Origin: Hormiphora californensis
Taxonomy: Eukaryota > Animalia > Ctenophora
DNA length: 64,000 bases
Direction: 5' to 3'
Assembly: GCA_020137815.1 (NCBI GenBank)
Contig: CM035362.1
Location: forward strand, 3,968,001 to 4,032,000
Both the position numbers and the translations under genes were made by a program. The notes under the pieces are model-generated. The model was given only the letters and a program-made list of their open reading frames with translations, searched no databases and had not been told where the DNA came from. This document shows, piece by piece, positions 4,701-58,003 of the stretch. The first letter of the stretch is position 1; each line of letters starts with the position of its first letter.

Positions 4701-7700
4701 CAGCGCCGCCACACGTATTTTGATTGAGTTGTAAGCAGTTTGTATAAACATCACAAATCAAAAGTATTTTTTGTAAGTTGCTCTGTTAGGCAACTGATCA
4801 ATGTTTTGCTGCCTTGTGTTATGCTCTTCGTTTGTTGGATAAAATTTTATGACCCCCCTTTTTCGCAACATTGATTCGAATTTTGCTGACCTCTTACCTA
4901 AAAAAGAGCAAAGTTTTAAATTTTTTACGAAATAGTTCACGGTATTCCGATTTACCGGATTATAAACCCTTTCCGACCTTGAACTTATTAAAAAAGACAT
5001 GACAAATATTCGTCGAATGTAACTATTAACTATTCCACAGCATCGACTGGGGCTAATAGTTATAACGCCAACGCCCAACTGTGAATGTCGTGGACCTTTA
5101 TTCTACTCTCTCTCTATAATAACCGTCACACCCCCTCCCCTTCTTTAGATTTGTCTTCGAGATGTTGGTGAGCTGATGGAGATTGTTATGGAGGGAACGT
5201 ACCACTCAGTACTCACTCAGGACAAATATAATCAAGATATGAGAGAGGATGACCGATTCGATGTAAGTTACACACCATATTTGGGCATATATGACGTCAT
5301 CATATGCCCAAATATGGCAGGAATAAATACAATCAGAACATGGGGAAGCCTTTATGTTTGAAAATAATTTTGTATAACAATTCATATTTTATCTAACTTG
5401 TATAGCGCTTTTTTAGGATGGCTTAGTGAGTGATGCCGCTATCAACTGGAACCAGTTGCAAATCTATGACCCCCAACAACCCTACCCAGCGACGTCCTAT
5501 CGTCGCCTCCCTTTCCTCAACAACTACATTCATGCTGTTCCTGGTCACCATGACCGTACTGCGTTTCGGAAGCTGGAATGTCTGTGGCCTGGCTGGTGAA
5601 GCGAGGTTAGCACACGTCGTCCAGGATTTCGAGAACTACCATCTTTCCGTGGTCGGTATTCAGGAGACCAAGGTCAGAAGCAGCAGAATCGAAACCGTCC
5701 CTGGAGGCCATAAACTTATCCTGTTTAACCAGGATCGCGGACAGTGGCACGGAGGACTCGGCTTTTTGATCAACCGTGATTTCACGGTAAATGTCAAGTC
5801 CTACAAACAAATTAGTGACAGAGTGGCGTACCTGGACGCAGAGCTCCCTGCATCCAGCCCCGACAAGCCACCAACCCATTTACGTTTCATAAACTGTTAC
5901 AGCCCCACCAATCCAAAATCCATCCTCAACCCTCAACTCGCACAACGCTTCTACGATGAGCTCAGTCAAGCTCTGGACGTACCTGCCCGGTACGAACCAT
6001 GGATCCTCGGAGATTTTAACGCTAAAATTGGCAAATTTCCCTTTGACGATCCTGTCAGTGGAATCAACGAGATAATGGGTTCATATTCAATTGGACGGCG
6101 AAACGAAAACGGCCAGCGACTTGCAGACTTTTGCATCACAAACAGCCTCTTTATAGCTAACTCTGCTTTCAAACACTCCTCACGCCACATCTCCACTCGG
6201 ACAGGTTGGGTGAAGGAAAAGAAATCAGGGCTTACAAGGCCGTATTTCTCACAGATTGACTACATTCTGTGCAGGTCCCGAAGCAAAAGTTTCCTCACTG
6301 ACGCAAGGGCCTACGCCGGAACAACACACAGGAGCGATCATAAACTTGTGATTGCCACTGTGAACACTGTCAGGCACAAGCTGTACCGCAAGAGGGCAGT
6401 TGTGTCAAGACAATACGATACCACCACGCTAATTGCTAGTGCAGCAGCACGTGCTGAGTATCAATCGGAACTTGACCAGGGAATAGCAGCTACCGACTCA
6501 TCCGAGTCAACAAACAATGATTTCAAAAACCTCTTCGATAACGTCAAGCTCGCGGCCACAAAATCTGTTGGGTTCAAACCTCTTGCTAGGAAGAGGCACC
6601 ACACATCAGACCCGGAGATAGTGGATATGTCATCTGATCGGAAAACCCTCCTGAACAAACTGAACAACAACTCCCTGAGTATCCGTTCCGGTCTGAGAAA
6701 GAGGATTAACCGTTTATCTGCTGACATCAAGCGCAGACTAAAGGTCCTGCGAAGAGAAGTAGCTGAGAGTCTTGCATCAGCCATTAACAACACTGATGAC
6801 TCACGCAAAATGTTCGAGGCAACAAGACAGCTGGCAGGAACTGTGAAACCTGAGCCAGTCACAGTTCACGACAGTGAAGAAAACCTCGTTCTCAAGGACA
6901 CTGAGAAGGCCAGGATTATTAGGGATTATTTTGAGGAGCACTACACCTGCCCTGCAGACGAGACCCCCCTTGAAGCTTTTCATGGACCTCCTAGACCTCT
7001 GGACACCCCCATCACCGCAGATGAAGTGAAAAGAGCAGCGTCCAAACTAAGGAATGGCAAGGCTGTAGGTCCAGACGGTATCCCTAACGAATTCCTCAAA
7101 CATGCCACTACATCGTTCTACGAGAGTTTCACATCTCTCATCAACCGATGTTTTGAACAGCATGAGTCAGTACCTTCTTTCACAGAAGGTTTCTTGGCAC
7201 CCCTCCAAAAACCTGGTAAACCCAAGGGCCCTCTTAAGAGTATAAGACCCCTATGTTTGCTTAATGGAACCAGAAAGATCCTTTCCATCATTATACTGCA
7301 CCGCATCAGGGACTGTGTGTCATCATATACCGGTCCTTGGCAGCATGCATACAAGCAAGGCACCAGCACCGGAAGTATTGTATGGGCGCAGAAGCTCTTG
7401 ATATCGGTTGTGAAGGAGAAACATTGGTCATTTCACAAAATGGGAATTGATATGTCTAGTGCCTTTGACACCATTAAGAGGCCAGTGCTCCTGAATGTCC
7501 TACAGGATGCAGGGTGCAGTGAGGATGACCTTCGCCTGGTCAGGTTCATGCTAGCTGATACAAGGCTGAGAGTGAGAGTTGATAACTGTTTGTCTGAGGA
7601 GTTTAACGTTTCCATCGGAGCTTTTCAGGGAGATAGTCTGTCTGGCAATCTCTTTACTTTATACCTTGCGGGAGCCCTCAATCACCTACGCTCAATAACA

Positions 7701-10700
7701 TCAACAACCCGACCAAACCCACCAATACAAGAAAACCTACTCCCGGTAGAGTGGGAATATGCAGACGATGTAGATTTCATCGACGAATCTGTTGACAACC
7801 TGACAGCCATGTTACCTATCTGCCAGGAGATTTTAGAGGAGTGGAATCTTCACGTCAACGAGACTAAAACCGAGCACGTCCATGTCTATCTTGCCAGCAA
7901 AGACGAGGTCGATCACAAGGGCGAGCCTGTGAAAGACCGAGAACCATGGAGAAATTGTATCTCACTTGGCTCTAAACTTGGATGCAAGGAGGACATTGAA
8001 CGACGTTGCAACCTTTCAAACCTTGCTTTTAGGAAATACAAAGCAGTTTGGGAACAAGGGCCTAGGATCTCCCTTGATACCAGGCTAAAGATATACGAGG
8101 CGCAAGTGGTATCAGTGCTGATGTACAACTGCAGCAGTTGGGCGGCACCTAAACAGACACTGCACTCACTTGATGTATGCCATAGGAAGCACCTCCGCAA
8201 CATCCTAAACATCAGGTTTCCTATTTGTATCTCCAACAAAACCCTGTACAAAAGGTGCAACACAGCACCCCTCAGCGAACGTGTATCCCGGGCACGGTGG
8301 AAAATGTTCGGTCATATTCTTAGGAGTCAGACCAACGCCCCTGCTATGATGGCTCTTAAATTCGCTGTATCATGTGACATGAGGGGTAGACGAGGGAGGC
8401 ACCAAACAAACCTCTTTTCAGTACTTAAATGTGATCTTAGGGAGAGGGGTTTCGATATATTGAATGATTTTGATGCGGTAATGGAGGCTGCGAGAGACAG
8501 AGTTGGGTGGAGAAGTATGAGTGTCGCTCATCAGTTTATTAAGGAGCTAATTTATTGGACATATTTAAACTGTACGAGTTCTATAATATAATAATATGTA
8601 TAGCGCTATAAAACGTTTCCCCTCTTTCTTCAGAATCCCTATGACTTGATGGTGATCTACTCAGCTCTGATTGATGCTCCTGACATGGCCAGGTTCTTTT
8701 GGGAGAACAGTCGAACACCAATAGCAACTTCCCTTATCGCACACAAGGTAACAAGTTGTTACTAACAACTTAGGATTTGAAGATCTGAGTCTGGAATCTA
8801 TAAATAATCGCCATGACGACATAATCTGAGATATTGTCTATGTTTTTCATTCTATGTCTTCTAATTATTATAACGGGAAGACATATAATATGTCTGGTCT
8901 TAGTTTTGAAATTACCCCTCATCTCGAGCTATAATAATGCATATAGGGGTGACTTCGTAACCAATATATATCTGGGTTTAAGATACAGATTCTAATCGTG
9001 GGAATATTATTCAGGTGTTCCTTTTCCTTGATAAAATGGAGGCAAAATGGGCGCGGATAGACGAGGAAATGACTGAGAAACTGGAAACCTCTGCTAGGTA
9101 AGAATTCACCCGTGCCCGCCTCTGCTAGGTAAGAATTCACCCGTGCCCGCCTCTGCTAGGTAAGAATTCACCCGTGCCCGCCTCTGCTAGGTAAGAATTC
9201 ACCCGTGCCCGCCTCTGCTAGGTAAGAATTCACCCGTGCCCACCTCTGCTAGGTAAGAATTCACCCGTGCCCACCTCTGCTAGGTAAGAATTCACCCGTG
9301 CCCACCTCTGCTAGGTAAGAATTCACCCGTCCCCACCTCTGCTAGGTAAGAATTCACCCGTCCCCACCTCTGGTAGGTAAGAATTCACCCGTCCCCACCT
9401 CTGGTAGGTAAGAATTCACCCGTCCCCACCTCTGCTAGGTAAGAATTCACCCGTCCCCACCTCTGCTAGGTAAGAATTCACCCGTCCCCACCTCTGCTAG
9501 GTAAGAATTCACCCGTCCCCACCTCTGCTAGGTAAGAATTCACCCGTCCCCACCTCTGCTAGGTAAGAATTCACCCGTCCCCACCTCTGCTAGGTAAGAA
9601 TTCACCCGTCCCCACCTCTGGTAGGTAAGAATTCACCCGTCCCCACCTCTGCTAGGTAAGAATTCACCCCTCACCATCTATCATGGTAGTGCTACCCCCA
9701 CCCCCAATTCTGCTAGATAAGTTCAACCCCCCCCCCCCTGATTAAAAAGGGTTCATTTCACCAAATTCTAGAACAAAGAACAGTCAAATCTCCAGATACT
9801 TTGACTCTATAATTATAGTTGTGTCATGTTATATCCTCTAACTTGTTTTCCTCCTTTGCAGAGAGTTTGAAAAGTTGGCATGTGGACTGATGACCATGTG
9901 CTACCACAACTACGATAAACAGGACTGGATACAAATCCTCGTGGTAAGAGTAATAATTTATAGTTTTTAAATAATTAATTATTAATAATACAGTCGGACC
10001 CCGATTTAACGGCCCCCGATTTAGCGGCCCCCCGATTTAACGGCAGCCTAATCTTCCCCCGATATAGAAAATCAACAGTATTTGACTCCGATTTAGCGGA
10101 CACCCCGATTTAACGGACAAAACCCTTTCCCCCGAGGGTGCCGTTAAATCGGGGTCCGACTGATAAAGATTTTGGCCAACTCGACATGTATACTCTTCAC
10201 CAGGAACCGACCGAACTAGGAAATACTGGTCTCTGATTAGCTGATAACCAGTCACGTGACCTAGTAAATAACGAGTTCTGATTGGTTGTTTAGGTACTTG
10301 TTTCGGTCGGTTCCTGCTTTTCACAAAGTACAGTCGGACCCCGATTTACCGGGCCCCGATTTACCAGAACCCCGATTTACCGGGAGGATAAACTTCCCCC
10401 GATATAAGAAATTGACGACATTTTGCCCCGATATACCGGGCACCCCGATTTACCGGGCAAAACCCTTTCCCCCGAGCATCCCGGTAAATCGGGGTCCGAC
10501 TGTATGTCATGTCTAAACTCACAATTCCATTAGGTGCCCCTCAAGGAATGGGGAGGTCTGAACCTGTTTGACCTGGCCACTATTATTGAAGCAAAGAATT
10601 TCATTGCCCACGCTGCATATCAGAGTTATCTAACGGATCTGTGGATGGGGCAACTGAAACCAAGCACCCGGGCTTTCAAACTTTTTGTAAGTTTGCACAT

Positions 10701-13700
10701 CCAAAACGAGATATATCCTGCCCTCTCTTATTTTAGTGACCATCTTGCCGCACACAGTTGTTATGTTTGTACTATAGTTATATTTTACACCCCCCCTCCT
10801 TCTATTTTGTGCAGGTTGGTTTAGTACCTCCGATTCCCATGTTTTTATCATACAACAAGATTCCCATGAGTAAAAAGGACATCGCTCGGAGAATCCTACG
10901 GGGCCAAGAGATAACGGTAAGGTCGTTACCATTGTGTTACCATTGTGGTATGTTACCATGGTTACCGTTGTGGTCTCTTACCATGGTTACCGTTGTGGTC
11001 TGTTACCATGGTTACCCTGTTTTTATTGTTTATTGTGATCAGGCAGATCCTTTCTCTTGTGCTTTGCTCAATGTGAGTGGAGCGAGCTGAGAGTAGGAAT
11101 CGTTGTTTGTATCAGTATAATTTAATCAGTATCAGTATAATTTAATCAGTATCAGTATAATTTAATCAGTATCAGTATAATTTAATCAGTATCAGTATAA
11201 TTTAATCAGTATCAGTATAATTTAATCAGTATCAGTATAATTTAATCAGTATCATTATAATTTAATCAGTATATCAGTATAACTTAACAGCATATCAGTA
11301 TAATTTAATAAGTACATATTACAGGGTATGATAGGGAAAGAAAAGGTAACAATATTTCTTGTGAAAATTATCTCGTACGGTTTTTTTCTTTATATGAAAA
11401 CTTGAACGGAAGCTATCGAGAAGCTTTTCTTTGCTTACTCAACAAGTCTTTGCTATACAAAACGCTACCGTTCGTCCGTTCGCATAATATATACTCGACT
11501 AAACTTTTCGAGAAGATCTTACTTCCGGACAGACACATGACCATAACAATTCTAACTAAACTGCAGTTTTGAGAGTTTCATCGCACACAGCTCTGATATT
11601 ATTGTTGCAACATTCCCTTGTTGAGTAAGGGGAGATCTCACCAGCAGCCCTTACTCAACAACTGTATTGCAGCGCCATACCCCATTTGACAGTGCGCTGA
11701 TTAGATGGGGTCGCCGCGCCAGACAGCTCAACAAAGATTAACTGCACTCTAATATTGGGTGGCCTGACTATGTACATTGTTCATAGATTAATCCCTTACT
11801 CAAATTTTCGCCACCCTTTTCAGACACGTCGGAAGCCGGTTGACGACGACGTTGAATTCGCACCCCAACTTCGGGCATACGACTACGATGAAAACGAAAC
11901 GAGAAGATCACCAACTTGGAAAGAGAAATTCTACTATTTCTATACATCACCTGTCATCAAGTTTTACCTAAACACCCTGACATACCTTCTCTTTTTATTG
12001 TTATATGGGTGAGTAATGACGTCACACAGGTGTAATGACGTCACACAGGTGTAATGACGTCACACAGGTGTAATGACGTCACACAGGTGTAATGCACGTC
12101 ACACAGGTGTAATGACGTCACACAGGTGTAATGCACGTCACACAGGTGTAATGACGTCACACAGGTGTAATGACGTCACACAGGTGTAATGACGTCACAC
12201 AGGTGTAATGACGTCACACAGGTGTAATGCCGTCACACAGGTGTAATGACGTCACACAGGTGTAATGACGTCACACAGGTGTAATGACGTCACACAGGCG
12301 TAATGACGTCACACAAGTGTAATGACGTCACACAGGTGTAATGACGTCACAAACGTGTAATGACGTCACACAGGTGTAATGACGTCACACAGGTGTAATG
12401 ACGTCACACAGGTGTAATGACGTCACACAGGTGTAATGACGTCACAAACGTGTAATGACGTCACACAGGTGTAATGCACGTGATGTAGGTAATGGCGTCA
12501 TGTGATATGAGTGATATGTCAAGCAGTATCTGATATCGGTTATTGTATCTCTCAAATCGAAAACTTTAACCCGATACGATAGTATTTTTAACTCACTATT
12601 ATTCACTTACTAATCAACTAATTAACTAATTATAACTTCTCTGAATCTCAGATTTGGTTTATTAGTTGAGAATGATGGCCTAGTGATAGACAAGAATGGA
12701 TCCAGGCTGGAGTACCAAGATCTCTATACCATGGTCTTTGTGCTGTCTACCGTACCAGTCGAGTTAAATCAGGTACGTCTCCAACACCATCTTTGGGCAT
12801 ATAATGACGTCATCACATGCCTAAATATGGTTTGTACTAGTACTGCAGTCGGACCCCGATTTACCGGGTAAAACCCTTTCCCCCGAGCATCCCGGTAAAT
12901 CGGGGTATGACTGTATGTCTTGATAAACTATCAAGTTTCTTGTTCCTATTGATTATTTAATTAAGGAGTTAATTAATTTTAATCACTGCTCTTTTTTAAT
13001 TAAGGAGTTAATTAATTTTAATCACTGCTCTAGATACGAAATGGTCGGACGAAAAGTAATTGGAAAAAGTTCAAGGATCACTTTATGGATTTGTATAACT
13101 TTATGGACGTTATAGCTGTTCTCATGTTCATTGGTACGTTGCCCTTATATGGTATTGGTATGTTGCCCATATATGGTATTGTGATGTTGTCTGGAATCTT
13201 CTGTTTGCTAATCCAATCTAAGAATTTTCAAACGGTTGCTGAACTGTCTGTATAATAAATCACATGTTAACATCTTTCTCTTCATCTTCTTATATCCTAA
13301 CGATTCTCAGGTGCATTCGGATTGAAAGCCAGTACCCCCTGGATATGCGCCAAGTCGCAACCAGAGGCCTGTATTGCAGATGGCGGACACACAGCACTCG
13401 ATCTAAACAACTTCGGGTATTATAAATCATGTCTGAACAATCAATCCATGATCACATTTAGACTCAATATTATACCTTCATAAACTAATTCATTAAGCTT
13501 TTCTTTACATGTTAGCTTGCATGATTGATCGATTTCAATCGGTTTTCCTCGCGTGATTCCTCACGATGCACGTGCAGCGCGTGAGTTCTGATGTACTTAG
13601 TTGCACGTGCAACGGAGTGCGGGAGAACTCACGCACTCAAATACACGTGCAACGCGTGAGTTCTCACGCACTCAGATGCACGTGCAGCGCGTGAGTTCTC

Positions 13701-16700
13701 ACGCACTCAGTTGCACGTGTAGCATGATTAACGCCATAAAATTCCTCTTTCCAGTTCGTACCACATCAGTTCAATGCTATCCACCTTGGTATTTGTCATC
13801 TACATGTTTCGTCTTATGGCCTACTTCCGCATCCACCCATTGATTGGTCCTAAAATCTTCACTCTTCAACGGATGACTATAGACCTAGTGTTCTTCCTCT
13901 TCTTACTCATGGTAATTAAACTAATTAGCTAATTAATCAATTACCCACCTCCCGCAGGACGTACCACGCCAACAGGCTGCTCTCCGCTATGTGTTTTAGT
14001 TTCTACTGCTTTCGGTTCGTCCAGTTATTTGAGATAAATGACCAAATTGGACCTAAAGTGTTTATGCTTAAAAAAATGGCTATTGATCTCTTCTTCTTCC
14101 TCTTCCTCCTTTTGGTAAATTTGAAGCGAGGGATATAGAGACATATATAGGAAGAGATAAGTTGCATATACACTTTTAGCACGCGTTTCATGGCTAGTTT
14201 TTAGCACATATTGGAGCTCCAAGTCCAAAGTCGATGAAAATTTCACAACTTTTTATGCCCTAATAATCCAACACGCCCTTTTAGTAAAATATCTTGAACC
14301 AACCCGTATTTGACTAGCATTTTTTAATCCCATCCCCTCCCCAGGTGTTCACTGTTTCCTACGGTGTTGCATCTCAAGCTCTGCTCTACCCATTCCGTGA
14401 GGACAGTTGGTCTGGGGCAGCTTTTGAACTTCTCGGCAGGTCATACCTTAATGTGTTCGGGGAGATTGATATGGACGGGTTCGAGGATGATCTTAAATCA
14501 GGTAGGATAATTATATGATGGGTTGATTAATTTGTTAATTTGTTAATTGGGCGAATTATCCTACTGATAAGATTCTAACCAACCTTTCGAGTTTTTTTAT
14601 AACAGGTGCATATTGACATACCACTCATTCCCTATAATACCAAATAGTTATTCGACTAATTATTATCTACTAATCATTCAACTAATCATTCAACTAATTA
14701 TTTAATTAGGCCATTGCGAGTTCAACGACACCAGTACCTTTCTCCACACCAACTTTACCGCGTATTCCAGCGAAATAGCTGATGTTGCCGATCTTGAGTG
14801 CACTAAGGATAATTTGCTTGAATACACCACGGTTAATATAATTCGCAGTAATTAGCAATAATTAGCAGTTTATAATTAGCAGTTATTTATTAGCAGTAAT
14901 TAGGCAGTTAGCATCACTCACAAAGCAAATTCATATGCAGCTAATGACACCTTCATGTCACCATTACAAATTTGCTATAGAAACAATCCTTGTGCTAGGT
15001 CACTGCGGGACGTATTCTACGTTTCCGTGGACAAATTGGGAGGCTTACAGCCCCGCGGAGATTAACAAGTCTAGTACCTGCACCTTCGATAATTGCAAGG
15101 AATATACAATTGTAAATTAATTAGCCGTTAATTAATTAGCCGTTCTAATTCTAGCCGTTAGACTATGATACTAGTTCCATATGGATCACTGTAAAGCTCT
15201 CTGATGTGTTACTAAAAATACTATAAAACACTCCCCACTCTACTAATTATCTAATTACTCTAATTATAAAGGAAGCAGCACAATACTAATCTATGACACG
15301 TTCTGTAATCTTCTGTCAGAGCAATGGCCTGACCCATTCTCGCTTCTCTCAAATAAGCGCGAGAACTGTGGTCAGAGCATTGGCCTGACAGGTAATCTTC
15401 AGATCATACTACCGCGCTCTTTCCAATAACTTCTTACTCTAACCCTACTTGATAACGAAGTTACCCCTCCCGTGCCAGAGCGCGAAGGGGTTATTTCGTA
15501 ACCAATTACTCTACTTGGTAAAGATTCTAGGAACTATATTATAGCCCACATACCCCTTTCATCTTCTCATGTCCATGAATCTTGTTGAGTCAACAGCATG
15601 AAACCACTATAATAATTGTAATACTGACTTGCTGCAGTATTACAAGACAGTGGGACACCCTGTACTGACTTGCTGCAGTATGGTGGGGGATGGTAGAAGC
15701 CGGCCACTGCCCTCTTCTTGGCCACTACCATGAAAGCTGGTCCATTTTAAGCCTGCACCCATCCCCATGCCTCTATTATTTCCGCCTCCCCATCTCCCTC
15801 TCCCAGCTGCCTATTTTAAGCCCAATATCTCCCTCTCTGACAGGCCCCATCTCCCTCTCCCAGCTGCCTATTTTAAGCCCATGATCTCCCTCTGACAGGC
15901 CACTGTGTAGGCTGGAATACTACCCTCTTATTGCACCCCTCTATGGGAAAAATGGCCTGTACTACGAAAAATCTTATGCACGATACTAAGGTATAAAGTG
16001 GAGTTACATGTGGTGTTACTTGTGGAGTTACATGGGGTGTTACATGTGGTGTTACATGTGCTGTTACATGTTACAATGTTACATGTGGTGTTACATGTTA
16101 CATGTGCCTTGCAAGCTACTGTGTCTATTACGGTGTCTATCACGCACACAAATGTCCTTACCTTCGTGGTAATGACCTCGTGGAAATTACCTCGTGGAAA
16201 TGACCTCGTGGAAATGACCTGATCGTTACGGCTACGCCACGCTGATTGCTGAACACCCTCGCCTATAGTTTGGTCCGTGAGGTTCAGTTTACTTCATGCT
16301 ACACGTGCAACCTGCTATGCTATCAATGTGCCTGTATGTGTTACATGTGATATGAAATTGATGCTGGATGGTTTATTTTGCAATGTGTAGTCCATAACAT
16401 TATGTATAGTCAGACCCCCGATTTACCAGGCAGAACCCTTTCCCCCGAGCATCCCGGTTAATCAGGGTCCGACTGTACTTGTATAGCCTTTCTCAGCCTT
16501 TCTCAGCAGCACTTTTTGTAGCCCAAACTCAGGAACCGACCGAATAAGGAAATACTGGTCCCTGATTGGCTGATAACCAGTCACGTGCCCTAAATAACGA
16601 ATTCTGATTGGTTGTTTACTTGTGTCGGTCGGTTCCTATACCCACAACAATTCCTCTAACACACCCTCACTAGGTGGGTCAAGTAAACTTCTACACTGCT

Positions 16701-19700
16701 TTTGGGTTGCTCTGTATGTACCTTCTGTTTGTCAACGTCATGCTTATCAACCTTCTCATCGCTATCTTCTCAAACACCTACGAAAATGTGGAGCAGCAAT
16801 CTGGTAAGAGCTGGAGGTTAACATTATTGAATGTGTAATATTATTGAATGTGTAACATCATATTGTTGTGTAACATCAGCTGCTTATAATAACCTCTCCA
16901 CCCCCGCCAGGTATCATCTACAAGACCCAACGTGCTGAGATGATCCTGGAATTCATGCAAAGACCTCCCCTTCCCAACCCTCTTTCCCTTCTATACTTCT
17001 CATTCCTCGTGTCGCGGAAGATCTATCAGAAATATATCAAGAGGATTAACTATGAGCGGGATCTACAGAAGATGAGTAAGTTAATATGTGCTGAACCATT
17101 AGCCAGGAACCGACCGAATCAGGAAATACTGGTCCCTGATTGGCTGATAACCAGTCACGTGACCTAAATAACGAGTTCTGATTGGTTGTTTACTTGTGTC
17201 GGTCGGATTAGCGAGACCTAGGACTGTGTATAATTAGCTCATTTGGTACTTTCTCCAATCGTTGCAGCTTGGTTCCCACAAACTTACGAAACTACTTTTA
17301 CTCCCTAACAATTCTGCCTCTCCCCAGTATATTTTCTAACAATTCTCCCTCTCTACCCAGTGTCAAATAAAACTACTTTTACCCCCTCATATTATCTAAC
17401 AAATTCTCTGTCCAGTATCAAATATGCCAAGTGGACGGCACAGTTCGATGGCCTACAGAAGTTCTCTGATGGAGGCGGAGTGTAGGGCCCAGTTTATACG
17501 GAAAACTAAGCTAGAGGCAGGAAATCAAACAGTCTCAGCCCTCTCAAGGTATACATATCAGAAATATAACATGGAGAAAATGCATAACGATCATTACAAA
17601 TCCACTAGGTGTATTGCAATAAACCCCACAACAAGAACAATTGTTTTTGCCAAAAATATCACTTTTTCTCACTGTTTTTTATTCACATTATTATTGAGCC
17701 ACGCGGTTATAGAATAACCCCATACTGGTCCCTGATTGGCTGATAACCAGTCACGTGACCTAAATAACGAGTTCTGATTGGCTTATAGAATAACCCCATT
17801 ACAGCGCTAGAACCGCAATATTGTAAGTGTATCTTCTTCAAAACCTAGTTCTCTACTTAGTCCTTGACCTCTCATTCTATCGTGTGACTTAATAAATCAC
17901 AGAACGTTGACCTGTATACTGTATAATTCTACACAATATACTATACTATATTCTATACTATATTCTATACAATATACTATACCCTTCGAGGGATACTATA
18001 CCCTTCGAGGGATATCGCTACACTATCATACATGATATGACAGTGGTTACTTTTACTGTTTGAATACTCATTAAATAAAATGACCCTTTACTAAGCCGCC
18101 CTACAAGTCACTATAACAGCCTTTTTCTAATCCTCCACTCCCCCATCCACACCACCCCTCCACATGTGGACCCCCTCCACATATGACACCTCTCCCTCCA
18201 TGCCTTGTCCATGACACATCTGACAGCACACTATTTTTTTACAGCAATGAGAACAACTTTGAGCCTACGTAAGTGCGAGCTGTAAACGCTGTGTGTATGC
18301 TGCACGTGTAAAGCAGGAACCGACCGAATCAAGAAATACTGGTCCCTGATTGGCTGATAACCAGTCACGTGACCTAAATAACGAGTTATGATTGGTTGTT
18401 TACTTGTGTCGGTCGGTTCCTGGTGTAAAGAAGCATATAAATCATCAACTAATTATATATGCAGCTAATTAATAACTGTATATCCTGCTAATTATATCCT
18501 GCTAATTATATCCTGCTAATTAAGTTCATTAAATTGGAAATTCTTAACTTGATTTATACTGTGTGACATATATACTCATAAAAAAGCACTATATTCTTAC
18601 GCAATAGCTGTTGACTTTGCAAGATAGAATATGCTTCATAACTACACCATTACATAACCCATCCTCCCTACCCAGACAATACCACGACCTATCGAACCGT
18701 ATAATGAGGCTGGAGAGTCAGCTTGTAAGCACGGGAGATAAGATATCGGAGATACATGAAGTGGTAGCCCAGAGGGCACGGATCAAAATAAAGGTAACCC
18801 ACGTGGGAGAGGGGTGTCGGTATGAGGTACCTCGATTTACGGGGCAAATCCCTTTTTATTTCACTGATCAGCATCCCGGTAAATTATTATAATATAGGGA
18901 GGTGTTGCAATTAGCAATTCAATGCTGGGTTACCATGTTTTGGCATGAGGCTCAAATAACAAAGGGTAGTATTGCCTCACTAGAGTCACATGATATAGCG
19001 GTGTTTCCAGTTTCGTGCAAGTTTCAATGGACCATTTAATTAAAGTAAATCACTCAATTATAGTTGCTGTCAACAAATAATAAGCTACAAAAAGACTGTA
19101 TACAAATCTGTAGATGCAACTTACATAGACCAATTGAGTGTTTACTAGGGTACAGACAGACACTGTGGGTTGGGTTTTACTTGCTATACTTTCTGTTAAC
19201 TGCTAAACTTTAACTGTGATCTTCCTTCATAAATCAGAAAATAGCTCGTACTATACCGTTAGCCCTTTTTTAGTTCGTACAAACAATGAAACATAAACTA
19301 GTAAAGAACATGATGAATATCAATGATATATGACTTGTTTGATTGAAAACGAGCTGTATCTTCTATGAAGAATCCATGCAGCTCACGTATTCAATAAAAC
19401 AAGTTTCCCGTTTCTCTCAGCACCCCTCGGGCGACAACGACCACTCTGACAGACATCCACCAAACGCGGCTCAGGTTTTCCAAAATCTCCTTAAAAAAGT
19501 CAAGAGACGCCGCGAGACAAGCGAGGGCGCCGAGTCCCTGGGCGAGTCGCTGGGCGAGGTTGAATCTACCGAGGTAGAGCTGAGTGAGAATTGAGAAAGG
19601 CACGTGCTGACCATTAGATCAGTGGACCGTCTAGTGAATGTGCGTGTGGACCGTGTGTGGAAGTTTGCACGTGCTGACGAGATAACACATTGGAGTATAT

Positions 19701-22700
19701 GCACGAGATATTATGAATACTCTGACACCCCCTGATTTTAAACAGAGCATGTTTTCTGCTGAGTGACACTGCATTGATCTGCCACACTGTCCCACACTGT
19801 CCCACATAGTCGCTGCTCGAGGGACAGTGTAGACAGTCAATGACATTATTATATTGACATTATTCAAATAAAATTAGTTTCGGAGCTGGGATACTGATAT
19901 GTTATTTTATGACTGGGTTATAATTGCTCTGATCACCACTGCACTGCTGTTTCCATATTTTTTCTGCTGTTGACTGTTGACCATATATGGACATATGACG
20001 TCATCATGATTTCTGCTGAAACTCCCCCTCCCCCTCCCCCTCTGACCCCTTCCCTCACAACCCCCCTCCCCTTCCAGCCATCTATAGATCAGTGGAAGGG
20101 TATAATCTCCCACACCCTCTCTCTAACATCACCCTATCCTGGTACGGAGGTGGAACGGTTCCCGCTAACTAAGGAACAAGCCAACTGGAAGGTATGTTAT
20201 GATATGTGATATGTGATATGTGATATGTGATATGTGATATGTGATATGTGATACGTGATCTTGTGTGTGATATGTGATCTTGTGTGTGATATGATCTTGT
20301 ATGTGATGTGTGATCTTGTATGTGATATGTGATCTTGTGTGTGATATGTGATCTTGTGTGTGATATGTGATCTTGTGTGTGATATGTGATATTGTGTGTG
20401 ATATGTGATCTTGTGTGTGATATTTCTGTGTGACTAGAAATAATTTGGCTCTTAAACTAAAAATCCATCACATTTCCTCAAATATTCTATAGTTTTTGGG
20501 GATATCTGAAAATCTCCTTGCCCTATAGATTCCAAAAATTATTCTTGCTTTTATCTAACAGCCCATATTAGGTCATTTAATCCCACGCTCCTTATTAGGT
20601 TATTTTATCCCAACTTCTATTCCTTATTAGGTAAAGGTAGATAACTACACTCCCCCTACCTTTGATAATAAAAGTATTCCCCACTTGGACCCCATCAATC
20701 CGTAAGTAACTAAATGCAGTTCAATATTCTATCTGTTTGAAACAGTATTCTATCTGAGAGCTAACTGGAATGAAAAGTGAAACTGAAAGCTAAACTAATC
20801 GCGGCATAGTAAACCTGACGACAGCTCTGACTAGCATCATGACTAATTATAATACTGATTGACTATAACATACTAGACTACAGTATAGTACTGACTAATT
20901 AACTGACCAATTAACTGACCAATTAACTGACTAATTAACTGACTAATTAACTGACTAATTAACTGACCAATTGACTGACCAATTGACTGACTAATTAACT
21001 GACTAATTAACTGACTAATTACCGGACTAATTACCGGACTAATTAATTGACTAATTACCTGATCAATTAATGACTAATTAACTGACTAATTAACTGACTA
21101 ACTAACTGACTCGCAGGGAGGTATATCTCATGAAGATTCCAGCGCCCAAACGAGATCACACCTGCCATTCACCGAGTCCCGACACAACGACAGACACTAC
21201 TGAAGACAAACCGACAGATCAGACTGGTACAGAGGGGACTACTGCAGATCAGACTACAGCAGAGGGGACTACTGCTGTAGAGGGATCGGGGGCAACTAGG
21301 GATTACATGATCGTCAATGATATCTGTCTGGTCAATGTGTTTAGAGATGACACTGAAGAAGACATGTACGAACAAACAACCACATGATAACCACATAGCA
21401 ACCACATAACAACCACATAACAACCACATAACAACCACATAACAACCACATAACAACCACATAACAACCACATAACAACCACATAACGACCACATAACAA
21501 CCACATAACGACCACACGGGTCATGGACATATTACATAATTACCCAATTAGTGTAATTACTACTAAATGACTATACCTAACACACGGTGTGTTCTAAACC
21601 AGTTTACACGCTCTCTTTTCCAGGGCCGAAATAAAGTTCAACCATGTCGACAATAATGGAGTTGACAGGATCAGTTACATGGGTCGGTACAATGTGTCAT
21701 CTTCTGGCAATTACCCAAGGTAATTAATTAGTATAATTAACTCTAATTAATTAGTAACAGATAGTAAATAACTAATTAGCGGATCAGTTATATTAGTTTT
21801 GAATCACTTCATTGCGTCCCTTAATATAAACAACATATTATAGTCACCTGATCATATGAGCCAGGAATTTAATATACTGACTCCACACTAGGAACCCGAA
21901 AGGAAGGACGGGGCTAGAGGGACGAGGCAACCTACCCCGATGGGGACCCAACAAGATGTCAATTATCATCGTTAGCAGGTAATGGTTTGAGAACTTTATA
22001 ATTTCCAAAAATATATCTCAAATTGAACCAGTATTCTCCTATAATATGCTTCGTATTTATTGTCTCTTTATCTTTTATTTCCCTCAAAATACTCCCTATA
22101 AATACATAAGATTTAGTTAGTTAATATAATTAATTTAATTAACTAACTAATTAATCAGGTATAAAGTTTAGTTAACTAATTAATTAACTAACTATAAAGT
22201 TTAATTAACTAATTAACTAATCAGGTATAAGGAGGTTACAACCCATACCGACCCACAACATGGGCACAGTATGATTGTCAATAAACAGGGTAAACCAGTG
22301 GCAGAGGTGCTCCTGTTGAGGATGGAGGGTTCCGAGAACTATGTCTTCCCTCAGGTGAGAGAGAGAACTATGTCTTCCCTCAGGTGAGAGAGTAATATCT
22401 ACAATGGATATAGTGTCTATAATTAATAAGGTAATATGGTAGTTCTGGGCTGAACTTTTTCGACCGCTTTAAAGCGCTTTAAAGCGTTTGAGAAAGCGCT
22501 TTATAGCGCTATAAAGCGCTTTAAAGCGGTACCGCTTTAAAGCGCACCGCTTTAAAGCGCTTTTAAAGCGCTAAAAGCGCTTTAAAGCGATTCTTGTAGC
22601 GATTTAAAGCGCTTCCGAAAGCGCTATAAAGCGCTTTCGCAAGCGCTTTAAAGCGCTACCGCTATAAAGCGCTTTTTTTGTTCAAAATCCAAAAATAAAG

Positions 22701-25307
22701 CGCTTTAAAGTGCTTTAAAAGCGCTTTAAAAAGCGCTATAAAGCGCTTTTAAGAACGCTTTATAGCGCTTTAAAGCGCTTTTAGCGCTTTATAGCGCTTT
22801 AAAGCGCTTTAAATCGTACAATAGCGCTTTAAAGCGCTTTTTAAAGCGCTTTTAAAAGCGGTCTAAAAAGCACTTTTAAAAAGTGGTTTAAAAAGCGCTA
22901 CAAAGCGCTATAAAGCGCTTTTTAAAGCGCTATAAAGCTATAAAGCGCTTTATAGCGCTATAAAAAGCGCTTTCGAAAGCGCTTTATAGCGCTTTAAAAA
23001 GCGCTTTATAGCGCTATAAAAAGCGCTTTTTTGGCGCTTTCGAAAGCGCTTTTAAGCGCTTTTTATAGCGCTTTAAAAAGCGCTTGATAAAGTGCTTTTT
23101 AGCGAAAGCGCTTTATAGCGCTACAAAAAGCGCTTTAAAGCGCTATAAAAAGCGCTTTATAGCGCTTTAAAAAGGGTAGAAGGGCCACGGCCCTTGAACA
23201 CCGCCACGTGGCGGTTTTAACCGCCACGTGGCCCCTGGACGTGGCGTCAATTCTCAGGACGTGGCGCCAATGAGCCTTTTTGGCGGTGTTCATGTGGCGT
23301 TAATAGTCGAAATTGGCGCTTCGAATTGGCGCTTTTCTTTTTTGGCCCCAGGGACGTGGCGTTGGCCCCAGGACGTGGCGTCAATTTTTGAGTGGCGGAG
23401 ATGTCAAAATTTTTTGGCGCTTTCGGATGACGCCACACCCGAAAAATTCGAATCGCCAATTTGTTTTTTTGGCCTATCATTTGGCGCTAATATTTGGCGC
23501 TAATTTTTTGGCGCCATATAATTTGGCGCCATATAAACTGATGCCAGAAACCCCCTAGTGGCTCCTAGGGACCCCCAGGAGGCGCTAGAGTCACCTAAAA
23601 GCCCCCTAGAAGGCTCCAAGAGACCCCTAGAGGCCACTAGAGTCGATTAGAGTCCCTCAAAAGCCCAGAAAGATCGAATGCAGCCCCAGATGAGCACACA
23701 AGGCCCCCAAAAAGCCACCAAAGTTCTCTAGAGTCCCCTGAAACGCCCCAAGAGGACACCAGAGGTCCCTGAATGCCCGTAGAAGTCCCTAAAGACCCAC
23801 AGAGGCATCAAGGATTGAACAGTTAAAAAAGAGCTGTGTTTATGTAAATATATCGCCATGTAAGAACTCAATTAGCGCCATGTAAATGGCACTAATAATT
23901 ACTTTGGCGCTTTGATGTGGCGGAGTTTATGTGGCGCCAATTATGTGGCGTCAATTATTGACGCCACACCGAAAATTCAAAAAAACCACGTGGCGCTAAA
24001 ATCGACGAAAAATCCATTGGCGCCATCCTTTCAAAATTGACGCCACGTCCTGGGGCCAACGCCACGCCCCTGGGGCCAAAAAAGAAAAGCGCCAATTCGA
24101 AGCGCCAATTTCGACTATTAACGCCACATGAACACCGCCAAAAAGGCTCATTGGCGCCACGTCCTGAGAATTGACGCCACGTCCAGGGGCCACGTGGCGG
24201 TTAAAACCGCCACGTGGCGGTGTTCAAGGGCCGTGGCCCTTCTACCTTAAAAAGCGGTTTCAAAAGCGCTAAAAAAAGCGCTTTATAGCGCTATAAAAAG
24301 CGCTTTATAGCGCTTTGTAGCGCTTTTAAAGCGTTTGAGAAAGCGCTTTAAATCGCTACAAGAATCGCTTTAAAGCGCTTTTAGCGCTTTAAAAGCGCTT
24401 TAAAGCGGTGCGCTTTAAAGCGGTACCGCTTTAAAGCGCTTTATAGCGCTATAAAGCGCTTTCTCAAACGCTTTAAAGCGCTTTAAAGCGGTCGAAAATG
24501 TTCAGCCCAGAACTACCATATTACCATTAATAATCACATACTATAGTGTGTATAATGACATGTCTATAGGTATAATTGAGTTCTCATAATTTGGTGGAAA
24601 CATTGGATAAGATTTGTTCTCTTGCTTCTTGTCCTAAACATAGCTTGTTCTTTCAGGGATTCCTGGCTCCAAAAGAATCCAGCCGCCACTCACATCAACG
24701 AATTCTGTTGGACCTGTGCTTTGACTATCAGAACAGGACAAAACAGGATCAAAAGACGCTCGTCCACTCTGTTGATCAGCTGTTCAAACACCACAAAGAG
24801 GTACTCCTTCACAACTAATTATTTATTGTGCTCCTTCATAAAACAAGACGTTTATGTATACTTGCTCCTTCATAAAACACTCTATTGTCAGATCGAGAGG
24901 AGTTACCTGGATGATTCAATGAACACAGACCACGCATGGATTGAAGTTGTGGTTGCCTCTGTGCATGATAATCAATACAACATGCCTCATAGCTTCCAGA
25001 ATGGACGAGGGGTAATTATTAATTAATTAATTAGTTAATTAATATTAATTCTATAATTTGTCCTGAAAATCTCATTAGTTTTCCACAATTAATGCCATCT
25101 CTCCTCCCTCAGGTGGAATCAGTTGAATGGGTATCCCTGGTGGAGCGGCCCCACATACATTCCAACATGGCAGCTGTCATGAAGAAGACCCTGACCATGC
25201 TCAAAGCATACAACCCATACAACACCAATGTCACACCCCCCGCCTCTCCCTCTCTAGAGAGAAAGGAAGAACTACCCAGCAGCAGCAGTACTAATCGGGT
25301 ATGTTAA
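1714..25307 (+). CDS. TRPM2: TRPM2-like cation channel with C-terminal NUDT9-H domain; 5' exons lie upstream of the window
   Basis: Phase-consistent GT-AG exons: 1714-1810, 1909-1989, 2242-2346, 2837-2909, 3244-3391, 3719-3895, 4106-4291, 4525-4563, 5149-5262, 8634-8747, 9015-9097, 9862-9943, 10534-10686, 10815-10916, 11824-12008, 12652-12772, 13034-13133, 13311-13416, [13755-13911 or 13958-14114], 14345-14501, [14710-14831 or 14999-15111 or 15899-15990], 16674-16803, 16911-17075, 17416-17548, 18676-18793, 20078-20191, 20631-20701, 21624-21719, 21892-21978, 22225-22354, 24657-24800, 24892-25011, 25113-25307. TRPM motifs: LEPNHSHFFLCDDG, EGG..GSGRAAD, QLKLAITW, FYTSPVIKF, IGPK, YLNVFGEI, NVMLINLLIAIF, QRPPLPNP. 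NUDT9-H motifs: NPKGRTGLEGRG..WGPN and YLDD..NTDHAW. Confidence 0.93.
2325..2669 (+). repeat. Tandem array of about 60-70 bp units copying the exon 3' end and donor site (5 donor copies)
   Basis: caaccattagttgtcattcgag|gtatgttat repeated, with junctions at 2346, 2415, 2474, 2546 and 2616. Confidence 0.9.
2918..3026. mobile_element. hAT-like MITE, about 109 bp (family A)
   Basis: TIRs CAGGAACCGACCG...CGGTCGGTTCCT with 8-bp TSD GTAAGTGC (2910-2917 and 3027-3034). Other copies: about 10201-10316, 16530-16638, 17105-17206, 17722-17782 (partial), 18314-18422 (TSD GTGTAAAG), 27975-28083 (TSD CTCTCTGT), 28868-28955, 35593-35701, 54662-54770 (TSD ATTTATCA), 57598-57683. Confidence 0.88.
5410..8596 (+). 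mobile_element. Full-length non-LTR retrotransposon (RTE-like, single APE-RT ORF) in a TRPM intron
   Basis: 11-bp TSD TGTATAGCGCT at 5399-5409 and 8597-8607; uninterrupted ORF; short TAA/TATAA-repeat tail. Confidence 0.93.
5430..8591 (+). CDS. LINE endonuclease/reverse transcriptase polyprotein
   Basis: APE motifs GSWNV, GIQET, LGDFNAKIG, IDYIL and SDH; RT motifs KAVGPDGI, RPLCLL, IDMSSAFD, QGDSLS and YADD. Confidence 0.95.
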   Translation: MMPLSTGTSCKSMTPNNPTQRRPIVASLSSTTTFMLFLVTMTVLRFGSWNVCGLAGEARLAHVVQDFENYHLSVVGIQETKVRSSRIETVPGGHKLILFNQDRGQWHGGLGFLINRDFTVNVKSYKQISDRVAYLDAELPASSPDKPPTHLRFINCYSPTNPKSILNPQLAQRFYDELSQALDVPARYEPWILGDFNAKIGKFPFDDPVSGINEIMGSYSIGRRNENGQRLADFCITNSLFIANSAFKHSSRHISTRTGWVKEKKSGLTRPYFSQIDYILCRSRSKSFLTDARAYAGTTHRSDHKLVIATVNTVRHKLYRKRAVVSRQYDTTTLIASAAARAEYQSELDQGIAATDSSESTNNDFKNLFDNVKLAATKSVGFKPLARKRHHTSDPEIVDMSSDRKTLLNKLNNNSLSIRSGLRKRINRLSADIKRRLKVLRREVAESLASAINNTDDSRKMFEATRQLAGTVKPEPVTVHDSEENLVLKDTEKARIIRDYFEEHYTCPADETPLEAFHGPPRPLDTPITADEVKRAASKLRNGKAVGPDGIPNEFLKHATTSFYESFTSLINRCFEQHESVPSFTEGFLAPLQKPGKPKGPLKSIRPLCLLNGTRKILSIIILHRIRDCVSSYTGPWQHAYKQGTSTGSIVWAQKLLISVVKEKHWSFHKMGIDMSSAFDTIKRPVLLNVLQDAGCSEDDLRLVRFMLADTRLRVRVDNCLSEEFNVSIGAFQGDSLSGNLFTLYLAGALNHLRSITSTTRPNPPIQENLLPVEWEYADDVDFIDESVDNLTAMLPICQEILEEWNLHVNETKTEHVHVYLASKDEVDHKGEPVKDREPWRNCISLGSKLGCKEDIERRCNLSNLAFRKYKAVWEQGPRISLDTRLKIYEAQVVSVLMYNCSSWAAPKQTLHSLDVCHRKHLRNILNIRFPICISNKTLYKRCNTAPLSERVSRARWKMFGHILRSQTNAPAMMALKFAVSCDMRGRRGRHQTNLFSVLKCDLRERGFDILNDFDAVMEAARDRVGWRSMSVAHQFIKELIYWTYLNCTSSII
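9088..9669 (+). repeat. 31-bp minisatellite (about 19 copies), each unit containing the exon end and donor site
   Basis: Unit cctctgctag|gtaagaattcacccgt(g/c)ccc(g/a); the first junction (9097) is the real exon boundary. Confidence 0.95.
9991..10502. mobile_element. Cluster of Tc1/mariner-like MITEs (family B, CAGTCGGACCCCGATTT termini) around a family A MITE
   Basis: Copies at 9991-10162 and 10331-10502 with TIRs, the second flanked by TA on both sides; related copies at about 12846-12913, 16408-16476, 34400-34571 and 47348-47412. Confidence 0.85.
11111..11310. repeat. 20-bp minisatellite
   Basis: (atcagtataatttaatcagt)n. Confidence 0.9.
12013..12482. repeat. 19-bp minisatellite starting just after a donor site
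   Basis: (gtaatgacgtcacacaggt)n, about 24 copies; most units contain TGACGTCA and CAG|GT. Confidence 0.92.
13755..13911 (+). CDS. TRPM alternative exon A (S4, S4-S5 linker, start of S5)
   Basis: 157 nt, ttccag|...|gtaatt; encodes SYHISSMLSTLVFVIYMFRLMAYFRIHPLIGPKIFTLQRMTIDLVFFLFLLM. Confidence 0.88.
13958..14114 (+). CDS. TRPM alternative exon B (paralogue of exon A)
   Basis: 157 nt with the same phases, ccgcag|...|gtaaat; encodes TYHANRLLSAMCFSFYCFRFVQLFEINDQIGPKVFMLKKMAIDLFFFLFLLL. Confidence 0.88.
14710..14831 (+). CDS. TRPM pore-turret alternative exon C1
   Basis: 122 nt, phase 1 to 0; encodes (G)HCEFNDTSTFLHTNFTAYSSEIADVADLECTKDNLLEYTT. Confidence 0.8.
14999..15111 (+). CDS. TRPM pore-turret alternative exon C2
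   Basis: 113 nt, phase 1 to 0; encodes (G)HCGTYSTFPWTNWEAYSPAEINKSSTCTFDNCKEYTI, clearly homologous to C1. Confidence 0.8.
15899..15990 (+). CDS. TRPM pore-turret alternative exon C3
   Basis: 92 nt, phase 1 to 0, ctgacag|...|gtataa; encodes (G)HCVGWNTTLLLHPSMGKMACTTKNLMHDTK. Confidence 0.72.
20198..20423. repeat. Degenerate GATATGT/GATCTTGTGT repeat after a donor site
   Basis: Seen directly in the sequence. Confidence 0.85.
20891..21110. repeat. 12-bp (CTGACTAATTAA)n array upstream of a candidate exon
   Basis: Seen directly; ends at ctgactcgcag (21116). Confidence 0.85.
21376..21516. repeat. 11-bp (ACAACCACATA)n array
   Basis: Seen directly in the sequence. Confidence 0.9.
22430..24525. 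mobile_element. Foldback-like non-autonomous DNA transposon (Merlin-like termini) built from AAAGCGCTTT palindromic repeats
   Basis: TIRs GGTAATATGGTAGTTCTGGGCTGAAC...GTTCAGCCCAGAACTACCATATTACC; 8-bp TSD ATTAATAA (22422-22429 and 24526-24533). Confidence 0.88.
23175..24246. mobile_element. Second non-autonomous element nested inside the foldback element
   Basis: About 210-bp TIRs GGTAGAAGGGCC...GGCCCTTCTACC; 8-bp TSD TTAAAAAG (23167-23174 and 24247-24254). Confidence 0.9.
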
Positions 25308-26514
25308 AAAGCAGCTTTTTTGTAATCCCTTGCATATCTGGCATGTTAATTTCTAGTTTTTACCCAAAAAACTGGCATTTTGTGATATTTTACCCCGAAA
25401 AACCTCTGCCCCAGTTTGAACATTACGTGGCCCAATATAAATCTGACAATTAACACGGTCTAGATCAGTCTGTGAGTCTAACATGGGTGTATAATGAGGC
25501 ATTTTTTACACTACACTCTATCTAACATTTTTCTTTACACTCTCTAACATATGAGTCTTGCATTATTCTTTACATCATCGCATATATTTCATATCATCCA
25601 ACCTAGACAGCTTCTAAAACTGCACTCTTCCAAGCTCTCGTGTTGTAGCACACATTTCACTCACCCCCACTCAAACCCCACCCTCTCTCTCTCAGCCGAG
25701 GATCCTATCACGACGGGAATCAAGAGCTGGACCCATGCCACCAACATTCGACTAGTTAATTAATCAATTAATTGATCATCATTCCTGAATAGATCGCACA
25801 CATACCTCTGAAAGCAGTATCTCTTTCTCTTTCTCTCCCAACTTTACAAACATTGCCAGACCATGATTCTACCGGGTGGGGTCTCTCTAATACCCAGGAA
25901 TCTGATCTCAGGAAGATAGCTAGCACGTGGAAAATAAAGGCAGGTCTGACGTCGTCATCAGCTCGAATAGCTCTGGAGTGACGTCATAGCTCTGGATCAG
26001 TGACCTGAAAATGAGAGAGTAATAAATGGATGAGAGAACTGATGAGATGAACTGCGTGAGACACCCTGTACAACGTTTATAGTTTTAGATATTAAAGATT
26101 TTTGTTTGGCGCACGAGGTCGCCGTTATATGTTATTAAATATTAACTGAAGTTTTGGGGGAAAGAATAAGAGACAAGTTAAATTGTGTTTTAAGCGAGAA
26201 ATTTGTTGTCGCTGAAATTTTTTAACGTGGGCACACTTACTAAATCTAAAACTGTAAGTGAGTGATAAAACAATATAATCAGAGCTTTGGAAATCTTCTG
26301 TCTGGCGCCGCCGACCCCATCTGAGCTCACTGTAGATTTGAGAATCAAATGGGGGTATGGCGGCGCCGTACAGGAATTCTTTTAGAGAAAGCAGGCATTA
26401 TAAAAGTACGGGCTGCTTTCATTGATTTGTTGTTGCTTTATTGATTGGTTTGTAAATATATATGACATTAGTTACACCCCACTAAACTCCCTGACTTTCG
26501 TCAATTTGTTTAGA

Positions 26515-41696: not shown

Positions 41697-41849
41697 CCTG
41701 AAATAAGTCATCATGTTCAAGGAGAGGATTTGGCCTGTTCTTAGTTCTAGTTTGTTAGTACTGTCGTAAAATTACTGGCAATTAGGAGATGTGCATTATT
41801 TTGCAAATTGCAAGTCAGCGTCGGCCGTCGAGGGAGAAAAAAGTTGTAA

Positions 41850-53568: not shown

Positions 53569-58003
<4,435 letters not shown>

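Follow-up and report, generated by a model that had tools for sequence, protein, structure and literature searches.

A TRPM2-like channel gene in the window (the whole stretch of 64,000 nucleotides analysed here) contains two adjacent homologous exons, A and B, which encode the same S4 to S5 region and very probably form a functional mutually exclusive pair. The explanation that we favour, and consider likely, is that the gene mostly splices in exon B, and that a smaller share of transcripts carry exon A in its place, for a channel whose PIP2-coupled gating would be tuned differently.

The part of the gene that lies within the window, and several of its constitutive exons, are the following:

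1714..25780, + strand: TRPM2-like gene, part within the window; its 5' end lies upstream of the window
12652..13133, + strand: constitutive S2-S3 exons (12652-12772 and 13034-13133), with the E..Q and N..D residues of the Ca2+ site
16674..16803, + strand: constitutive S6 exon, starting in phase 0
20078..25298, + strand: NUDT9-H-like C-terminal exons, with RILLDL at the Nudix-box position

The gene model comprises 33 exons from 1714 to the stop codon, with canonical splice sites throughout, and is colinear with four ortholog proteins (tblastn); a segment at 4525-4563 was excluded, being absent from all four orthologs used. From a relative comes a full-length mRNA contig, L001, whose exon sequences are about 70-82% identical at the nucleotide level; it encodes a protein of 1527 aa with SLOG, TRPM2-like and Ion_trans domains, and the Pfam domains LSDAT_euk, TRPM2-like and Ion_trans were found in the ortholog P0084, with which the window exons are colinear. 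The best PDB match of the ortholog is Nematostella TRPM2 (6co7, E 4.5e-144), the NUDT9-H region included (residues 1182-1499 of P0084 against 1228-1546 of 6co7, E 8e-32). The SLOG/MHR N-terminus and the six-helix channel domain of the TRPM family are present and, at the level of the sequence, so are the four residues (E, Q, N, D) of the Ca2+ site in S2-S3, which were defined for TRPM2 in PMC5976436. Judged by these matches, the gene encodes a TRPM2-like channel, and this assignment in the first-pass annotation, made from the letters alone, was borne out by the Pfam domains, the PDB matches and the NUDT9-H region. The unchanged exon B peptide in a Pleurobrachia bachei gene model (P0002) probably places the window in a pleurobrachiid ctenophore. 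Ctenophores contain several TRPM paralogs. For the L001 membrane domain, AlphaFold run on the single sequence gave an uninformative model (pLDDT 41).

In an ungapped register, the Nudix-box position (24657-24800) reads RILLDL in the window, RV(L/V/I)LDL in three orthologs and REFSEE or REFGED in three paralogs. The canonical box of the invertebrate TRPM2 chanzymes, REUXEE, is absent from the window gene, and ADPRase activity is predicted to have been lost in this invertebrate TRPM2-like protein. An earlier survey (PMC6461439) reports all invertebrate Nudix boxes as canonical and, in a figure legend, no ctenophore TRPM2; the present finding suggests a TRPM2-like lineage in a phylum where that legend had none.

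The exon pair and its constitutive neighbours are arranged as follows:

13311..13416, + strand: upstream constitutive exon, end of S3 and S3-S4 loop, ending in phase 2; joined to B in an X1 contig
13755..13911, + strand: exon A, S4, S4-S5 junction and first half of S5; divergent, likely the minor form
13912..13957, + strand: spacer between A and B, 46 nt, with YTAAY branch-point-like adenosines; likely too short for splicing
13958..14114, + strand: exon B, the same S4/S4-S5/S5 region as in A; conserved main form
14345..14501, + strand: downstream constitutive exon for the last part of S5, the pore helix and the FGE filter, starting in phase 0 and ending in phase 1

Both exons are 157 nt long, have AG and GT flanks and share an open frame, and the anatomy first described for them (equal lengths, phases, splice sites and the 46-nt gap) was confirmed from the coordinates. 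Their peptides are identical at 26 of 52 residues, and the motifs FR, IGPK and M.IDL.FFLFLL are, as had been pointed out, kept in both despite the divergence. The S4-S5 region of TRPM structures in the PDB is matched by B (best E 6e-8) and by A (best E 2.9e-6), and tblastn detected no S4-S5 copies beyond these two in the 64-kb window. In the 33-exon model, A alone or B alone yields a protein of 1328-1338 aa; A and B together lead to a stop at aa 741 and the omission of both to a stop at aa 731-769, as expected from the earlier claim that both exons, or neither, break the frame.

Along the B/C1 path there are 32 other introns, and the spacer has half the length of the shortest of them (91 nt); its predicted branch-point-like YTAAY adenosines lie 13, 21 and 25 nt from the donor of A. 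Exclusion may be steric, the spacer being likely too short to be spliced out: a branch point placed 13-25 nt from the donor of A would block double inclusion. Transcripts with both exons or with neither would run into early stops, and NMD would serve as a back-up. Mutual exclusion by steric constraint plus NMD is a principle described in PMC4165533.

The tandem A-B layout is also found in P0001, an independent read-through protein from another genome, in which the spacer is inferred to be 44 nt long and is unlike the 46-nt spacer of the window in sequence. If retained together with both exons, the 44-nt spacer would keep the frame in that species, while the spacer of the window would not. That the two copies are an assembly artefact, made of collapsed haplotypes or pieces of paralogs, is so improbable that it may practically be set aside: the copies diverge by 50% at the amino acid level, the flanking exons are continuous and colinear on both sides, and the genome behind P0001 is an independent one. 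When lobate-type B exons are read through in the upstream direction (P0003, P0005 and P0083), no in-frame A is met within about 57-65 codons, and therefore the 46-nt geometry may not hold in lobate types.

Directly upstream of the exon A acceptor lies a strong hairpin-forming repeat array (13562-13727), which might affect the inclusion of A; the fold energy of 13560-13760 is about -97 kcal/mol, with no shuffle control. A perfect 18-nt inverted pair (13710-13727 and 16294-16311, separated by 2566 nt) has one arm ending beside the predicted branch point of exon A and, even when 2 mismatches are allowed, no further copy in the window; it could represent two repeat copies or a long-range RNA pairing.

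For the splicing of A and B, two read sets (X1 and X2) were compared with the window, at a contig depth of about 4.5 and with no available run recorded as RNA. One X1 contig of 349 nt joins 13416 to 13958 at GT..AG, with B in and A skipped, which is one of the junctions that the first-pass annotation had named; 31 unaligned letters of the same contig, skipped as a repeat, fit the end of B, implying that B is joined to 14345. Double inclusion was seen in 0 of 1 contig in the window species. The X2 contig on exon B is about 86% identical. Exon A was covered by neither X1 nor X2 contigs, at a depth too thin to show absence. The L001 mRNA of the relative uses a B-type exon and a C1-like pore loop (see below).

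RefSeq X isoforms are automated models, which would rest on RNA-seq alignments. Among the 12 isoforms of the Bolinopsis microptera ortholog, 10 are of B-type and 2 (X5 and X9) carry another 52-residue exon; no isoform (0/12) has both, these being gene models from which frameshifted forms would be omitted. The differences between X5 and X4 are confined to 30 residues within 915-966, and P0040, a genomic read-through of the Bolinopsis alternative segment, ends at the same donor position. The 3 Mnemiopsis isoforms listed, from a cluster of 4, are all of B-type and none has both exons. No spliced A-type protein appeared among the candidates listed (1 of 4; 13 of 585), where only the genomic read-through P0001 is of this type, and no S4-S5 alternatives occur among the isoforms listed for the TRPM paralog clusters (15 of 45, 15 of 31, 11 of 11 and 14 of 14).

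Exon B is probably the conserved main form, and A a fast-evolving, minor form; B would act as the default exon, replaced by A in a minority of transcripts. The original proposal of one gene encoding channels with two gating modules is supported in part, by B-only splicing and the same-site swap in Bolinopsis, and has to be modified in that the exons are unequal, with B as the main form and A probably the minor one. A different interpretation would treat A as a pseudoexon in decay that transcripts leave out entirely or take up only as noise, as might be suspected from its missing RNA cover in both read sets (2/2, depth about 4.5) and from the use of B in L001 and in the 3/3 listed Mnemiopsis models. 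This is quite improbable, since A is conserved in P0001, an exon swap at the same site is present in the Bolinopsis models, and the sequence of A departs from what neutral decay produces.

The last point comes from a neutral-decay test, in which 3000 simulations were run from B down to 26/52 identity (B was fixed and indels were not simulated) and scored with a PSSM built from 54 other TRPM peptides. The scores of A and B are 72.8 and 85.4, respectively. Of the simulated sequences, 974 of 3000 were stop-free, with a maximum score of 42.8, and 0 of the 974 reached the 72.8 of A; only 311 of 3000 were stop-free with both splice sites intact. The Bolinopsis A exon scores 45.8, barely above the neutral maximum. 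By codon position, A and B are identical at 28, 39 and 23 of 52 sites. Exon A shares 34 of 36 residues with the A part of P0001, beside the changed 44-nt spacer, whereas B is identical to its counterparts at 52 (P0001), 49 (Bolinopsis), 48 (Mnemiopsis) and 47 (L001) of 52 residues and its peptide is unchanged in the Pleurobrachia bachei gene model P0002. Because no stop-free simulation scores as well and 34/36 residues are kept in P0001, the sequence of exon A shows the mark of purifying selection. The suggestion that both exons are selected is hence borne out by the neutral-decay test, P0001 and the near-invariant B, and conservation in relatives, proposed as a check on it, was found for A in P0001 and for B across ctenophores.

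Between the two lineages, A is identical at 26/52 and B at 49/52 residues. Nevertheless, in 7 columns the two A exons side with each other against the two B exons, and in 0 columns is a residue shared by species; the A-specific columns include Thr36 (in 0/10 paralogs) and Pro28 (in 1/10). In a tree of 18 rows and 52 columns, the long branches of which weaken all three topology tests, the B exons group together (87/87) and the two A lineages stand apart without support. In AU tests, a lobate-only duplication was rejected (p 0.024), and neither one A clade (p 0.455) nor a Pleurobrachia-only duplication (p 0.295) was. A single old duplication behind the A exons seems, on these sequences, a more likely history than separate ones. 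Pleurobrachia-type and lobate ctenophores might instead have gained their A exons by separate duplications of the same exon, given that the tree parts the two A lineages, if with no support, and that a clade of the window A and B has an AU p of 0.295; this we regard as doubtful in view of the 7 A-against-B columns, Thr36 and Pro28 among them, the 0 species columns, and the rejection of the lobate-only topology but not of one A clade.

As to what the swap would change, exon position 28 corresponds in ungapped alignments to human K918, zebrafish R934 and Nematostella R969 (the Nematostella numbering was verified at E893/Q896). This position is Asp in B, Pro in all three A versions and K/R in 40/54 other TRPMs. 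At the S4-S5 junction, Glu25 accompanies Asp28 in B, and none of the three A versions has an acidic residue at positions 22-29, the net charge of which is -2 in B, +1 in window A and +2 in Bolinopsis A; the linker charge difference noticed at first is therefore real. In PMC8125603, the PIP2 EC50 rose from 11.9 to 52.2 uM in human K918A and from 2.1 to 22.9 uM in Nematostella R969A, and the shift in the equivalent mutant of zebrafish R934 was not significant. Since a position that serves PIP2 in TRPM2 is Asp in B and Pro in A, A would probably retune PIP2-coupled gating; as the role of A, such a retuning of the PIP2 response or gating has about even chances. With no basic residue at 28 in either exon, it can only be guessed which way a PIP2 effect would go.

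By spacing, exon positions 19, 28, 33 and 39 correspond to TRPM8 R842, R851, K856 and R862, residues that influence how the channel responds to voltage, cold and PIP2; at human TRPM8 R842, charge reversal abolishes responses and R842A reduces them (PMC9805079). The S4 Arg is present in 52/54 TRPMs and in window A, and is Gly in Bolinopsis A. With Pro28 and no acidic residue at 22-29, exon A would alter the coupling of PIP2 and voltage to the gate, while the swap would leave the Ca2+ ligands, the filter and the ligand domains unchanged. It is also conceivable, if rather unlikely, that A is spliced in and yields non- or weakly conducting subunits that dampen B channels in mixed tetramers. Such a role would fit the fast evolution of A relative to B between the lineages, as well as the Bolinopsis A without the S4 Arg, whose TRPM8 equivalent R842 matters (PMC9805079), but window A still has the S4 Arg, GPK and the core of S5, and among pleurobrachiids its conservation is strong.

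The retuning reading is of interest because the S4-S5 junction, probed so far mainly via point mutants, is the site from which the TRPM gate is controlled by PIP2, by the TRP helix and by the Ca2+/voltage-sensor-like domain. Two natural, selected versions of it in an otherwise identical protein would make this coupling directly testable, and they suggest that exon swapping serves ctenophores, as it does bilaterians, to diversify their sensory channels.

The first-pass annotation described the A/B pair; the pair stands, but a candidate second cluster in the same gene was missed, which encodes the outer pore loop and consists of:

14710..14831, + strand: C1, 122 nt, phase 1 to 0, 2 Cys and 2 N-x-S/T; counterpart of the L001 mRNA loop
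14999..15111, + strand: C2 (candidate), 113 nt, phase 1 to 0, 3 Cys, starting with G-H-C
15899..15990, + strand: C3 (candidate), 92 nt, phase 1 to 0, 2 Cys, net charge +2, starting with G-H-C

All three lie inside one intron, bounded by the filter exon (14345-14501) on one side and the S6 exon (16674-16803) on the other, where the outer pore loop follows the filter (PMC5976436), and all three, C1 included, begin with G-H-C. The 64 kb contain 4 instances of an acceptor followed by the GHC motif (chance mean 0.98), 3 of them in this intron on the coding strand. With a loop profile made from 10 non-window loops, by which 1498 candidate segments (686 acceptors) were scored, C1-C3 are the top three loci with 27.6, 12.9 and 10.1 bits, the next locus having 7.1. 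In tblastn, C1 is 52% identical to residues 997-1040 of P0084, and C3 is weakly similar to the Bolinopsis loop (E 0.04). Any single C exon keeps the frame, and pairs, all three or none lead to an early stop. The encoded loops of C1, C2 and C3 are 40, 37 and 30 aa long, with charges of -7, -2 and +2 and 2, 1 and 1 sequons.

C1-C3 are uncovered by the X1 and X2 contigs, whose depth of about 4.5 is too thin to show absence; transcript support exists for a C1-like loop (L001), C2 and C3 having no RNA support, and one pore loop each is found in the Bolinopsis (12/12) and listed Mnemiopsis (3/3) models. The phases, frames and motifs of C1-C3 suggest that they are likely a second mutually exclusive cluster, and it is rather probable that C2 or C3 is used. 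They would then swap a disulfide-bonded, glycosylated outer pore loop and, combined with A and B, give up to six forms; in TRPM8 the Cys pair and the glycan of the outer pore loop are of importance (PMC9805079).

A 72-nt segment in frame before C3 (15320-15391) was rejected as an exon, as the orthologs lack it and it contains an internal 19-nt direct repeat. An X1 contig departs exactly at the GT of the element 15312-15391 into sequence absent from the window, and the element is probably a dispersed one and not an exon. The pairing of 15320-15391 with the C acceptors was at best modest in comparison with random windows (6, 18 and 77 of 300).

Several other features of the window may be listed. 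Candidate cassette or alternative last exons of the channel gene are located at 19421-19600, 18245-18268, 4525-4563 and 21117-21400; the 19421 segment resembles one that some Bolinopsis isoforms carry and others lack, and it contains in-frame donors or a stop with which the NUDT9-H domain would be lost. The largest intron contains an intact ORF of 1053 aa (5430-8591, + strand), which by eye is LINE-like with endonuclease and reverse transcriptase, and an ORF of 220 aa (505-1167, + strand) lies within an upstream intron of the gene. An open frame of 467 aa on the minus strand (40368-41771) matches Pfam penicillin amidase (E 2.4e-53) in an animal genome, and is a candidate for horizontal origin that is worth checking. 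A VPS15-like kinase/helical ORF (50360-52165, - strand) and a weak 7tm_1 receptor ORF (54783-55835, + strand) were also found.

Taken together, a wider reading can be put forward tentatively, namely that a splice switch for the TRPM2-like S4-S5 PIP2 contact may have been kept since before the cydippid/lobate split, that its combination with three loops in the Pleurobrachia-type lineage may give up to six channels, and that NUDT9-H catalysis may have been lost independently of vertebrates. If true, this gene would provide a natural chimera series for the coupling of PIP2 and S4 to the TRPM gate.

The closest known system is the ortholog of Bolinopsis microptera, TRPM-like 2 (XP_063693143-155), in which X5 and X9 replace the same 52 residues; its A exon differs in being 26/52 identical to window A and without the S4 Arg, and its models contain a single pore loop. 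We found no paper describing this isoform swap. The first-pass annotation knew of no such swap in TRPM genes, which agrees with the papers found but not with RefSeq, where it is present (XP_063693147.1 and XP_063693151.1). In the literature found on TRPM and ctenophore splicing, with subscription papers largely outside the search, there was no S4-S5 exon swap in TRPM, including the accessible passages of PMC6137742, PMC7143563, PMC13483504, PMC2865541 and 10.1101/2021.11.14.466824, and no literature was found on Pleurobrachia together with TRPM2. Drosophila trpm has alternative exons A1-A6, which may be a precedent for a TRPM swap, their positions not being given in the text passages of PMC2865541. 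In ctenophores, an exclusive exon pair was predicted for a Mnemiopsis myosin (PMC3912159).

Nematostella TRPM2 (6co7; PMC5976436, PMC6461439) has in common with the window gene the SLOG/MHR region, the transmembrane part, the Ca2+ site and the NUDT9-H-like C-terminus; the window gene differs by Asp/Pro in place of Arg969, a non-canonical Nudix box and a longer outer pore loop. TRPM3 alpha1/alpha2 resembles the window gene in that splicing in S5-S6 alters channel properties (PMC12799467), but the TRPM variants in the passages of that 2025 review are truncations and the TRPM3 pore insert, no swap of homologous exons being named there, nor any variant in S4-S5. The alternative segments of Drosophila TRPA1 A-D confer different thermal gating, and are located within the N-terminus as well as the allosteric nexus, not in S4-S5 (PMC10073219).

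Voltage-gated channels offer parallels in a different family. The exons c/d of para lie near DII S4-S5. Duplicated exons swap a gating segment in the insect Nav exons IIIS3-S4 27A-D, k/l and G1/G2 (PMC3805903), and exclusive exons change a gating segment in Cav1.2 8/8a (PMC3060452) and SCN 5N/5A (PMC8383430). Such Nav/Cav pairs often comprise a main and a minor form of a 6-TM-type module, as in A/B, but only one of four domains is changed there, whereas in TRPM all four subunits would be, or mixed tetramers would form. The protostome Cav3 exons 12a/12b, which are exclusive, Cys-containing pore loops differing in length and Cys number, are a model for C1-C3; they lie ahead of the filter and act as a switch of Na+/Ca2+ permeability, whereas the candidate C1-C3 follow it (PMC5379919). 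Mutually exclusive exons for gating segments and pore loops are an established feature of Nav and Cav channels, and the TRPM case appears, from the papers found, to be new apart from the RefSeq models.
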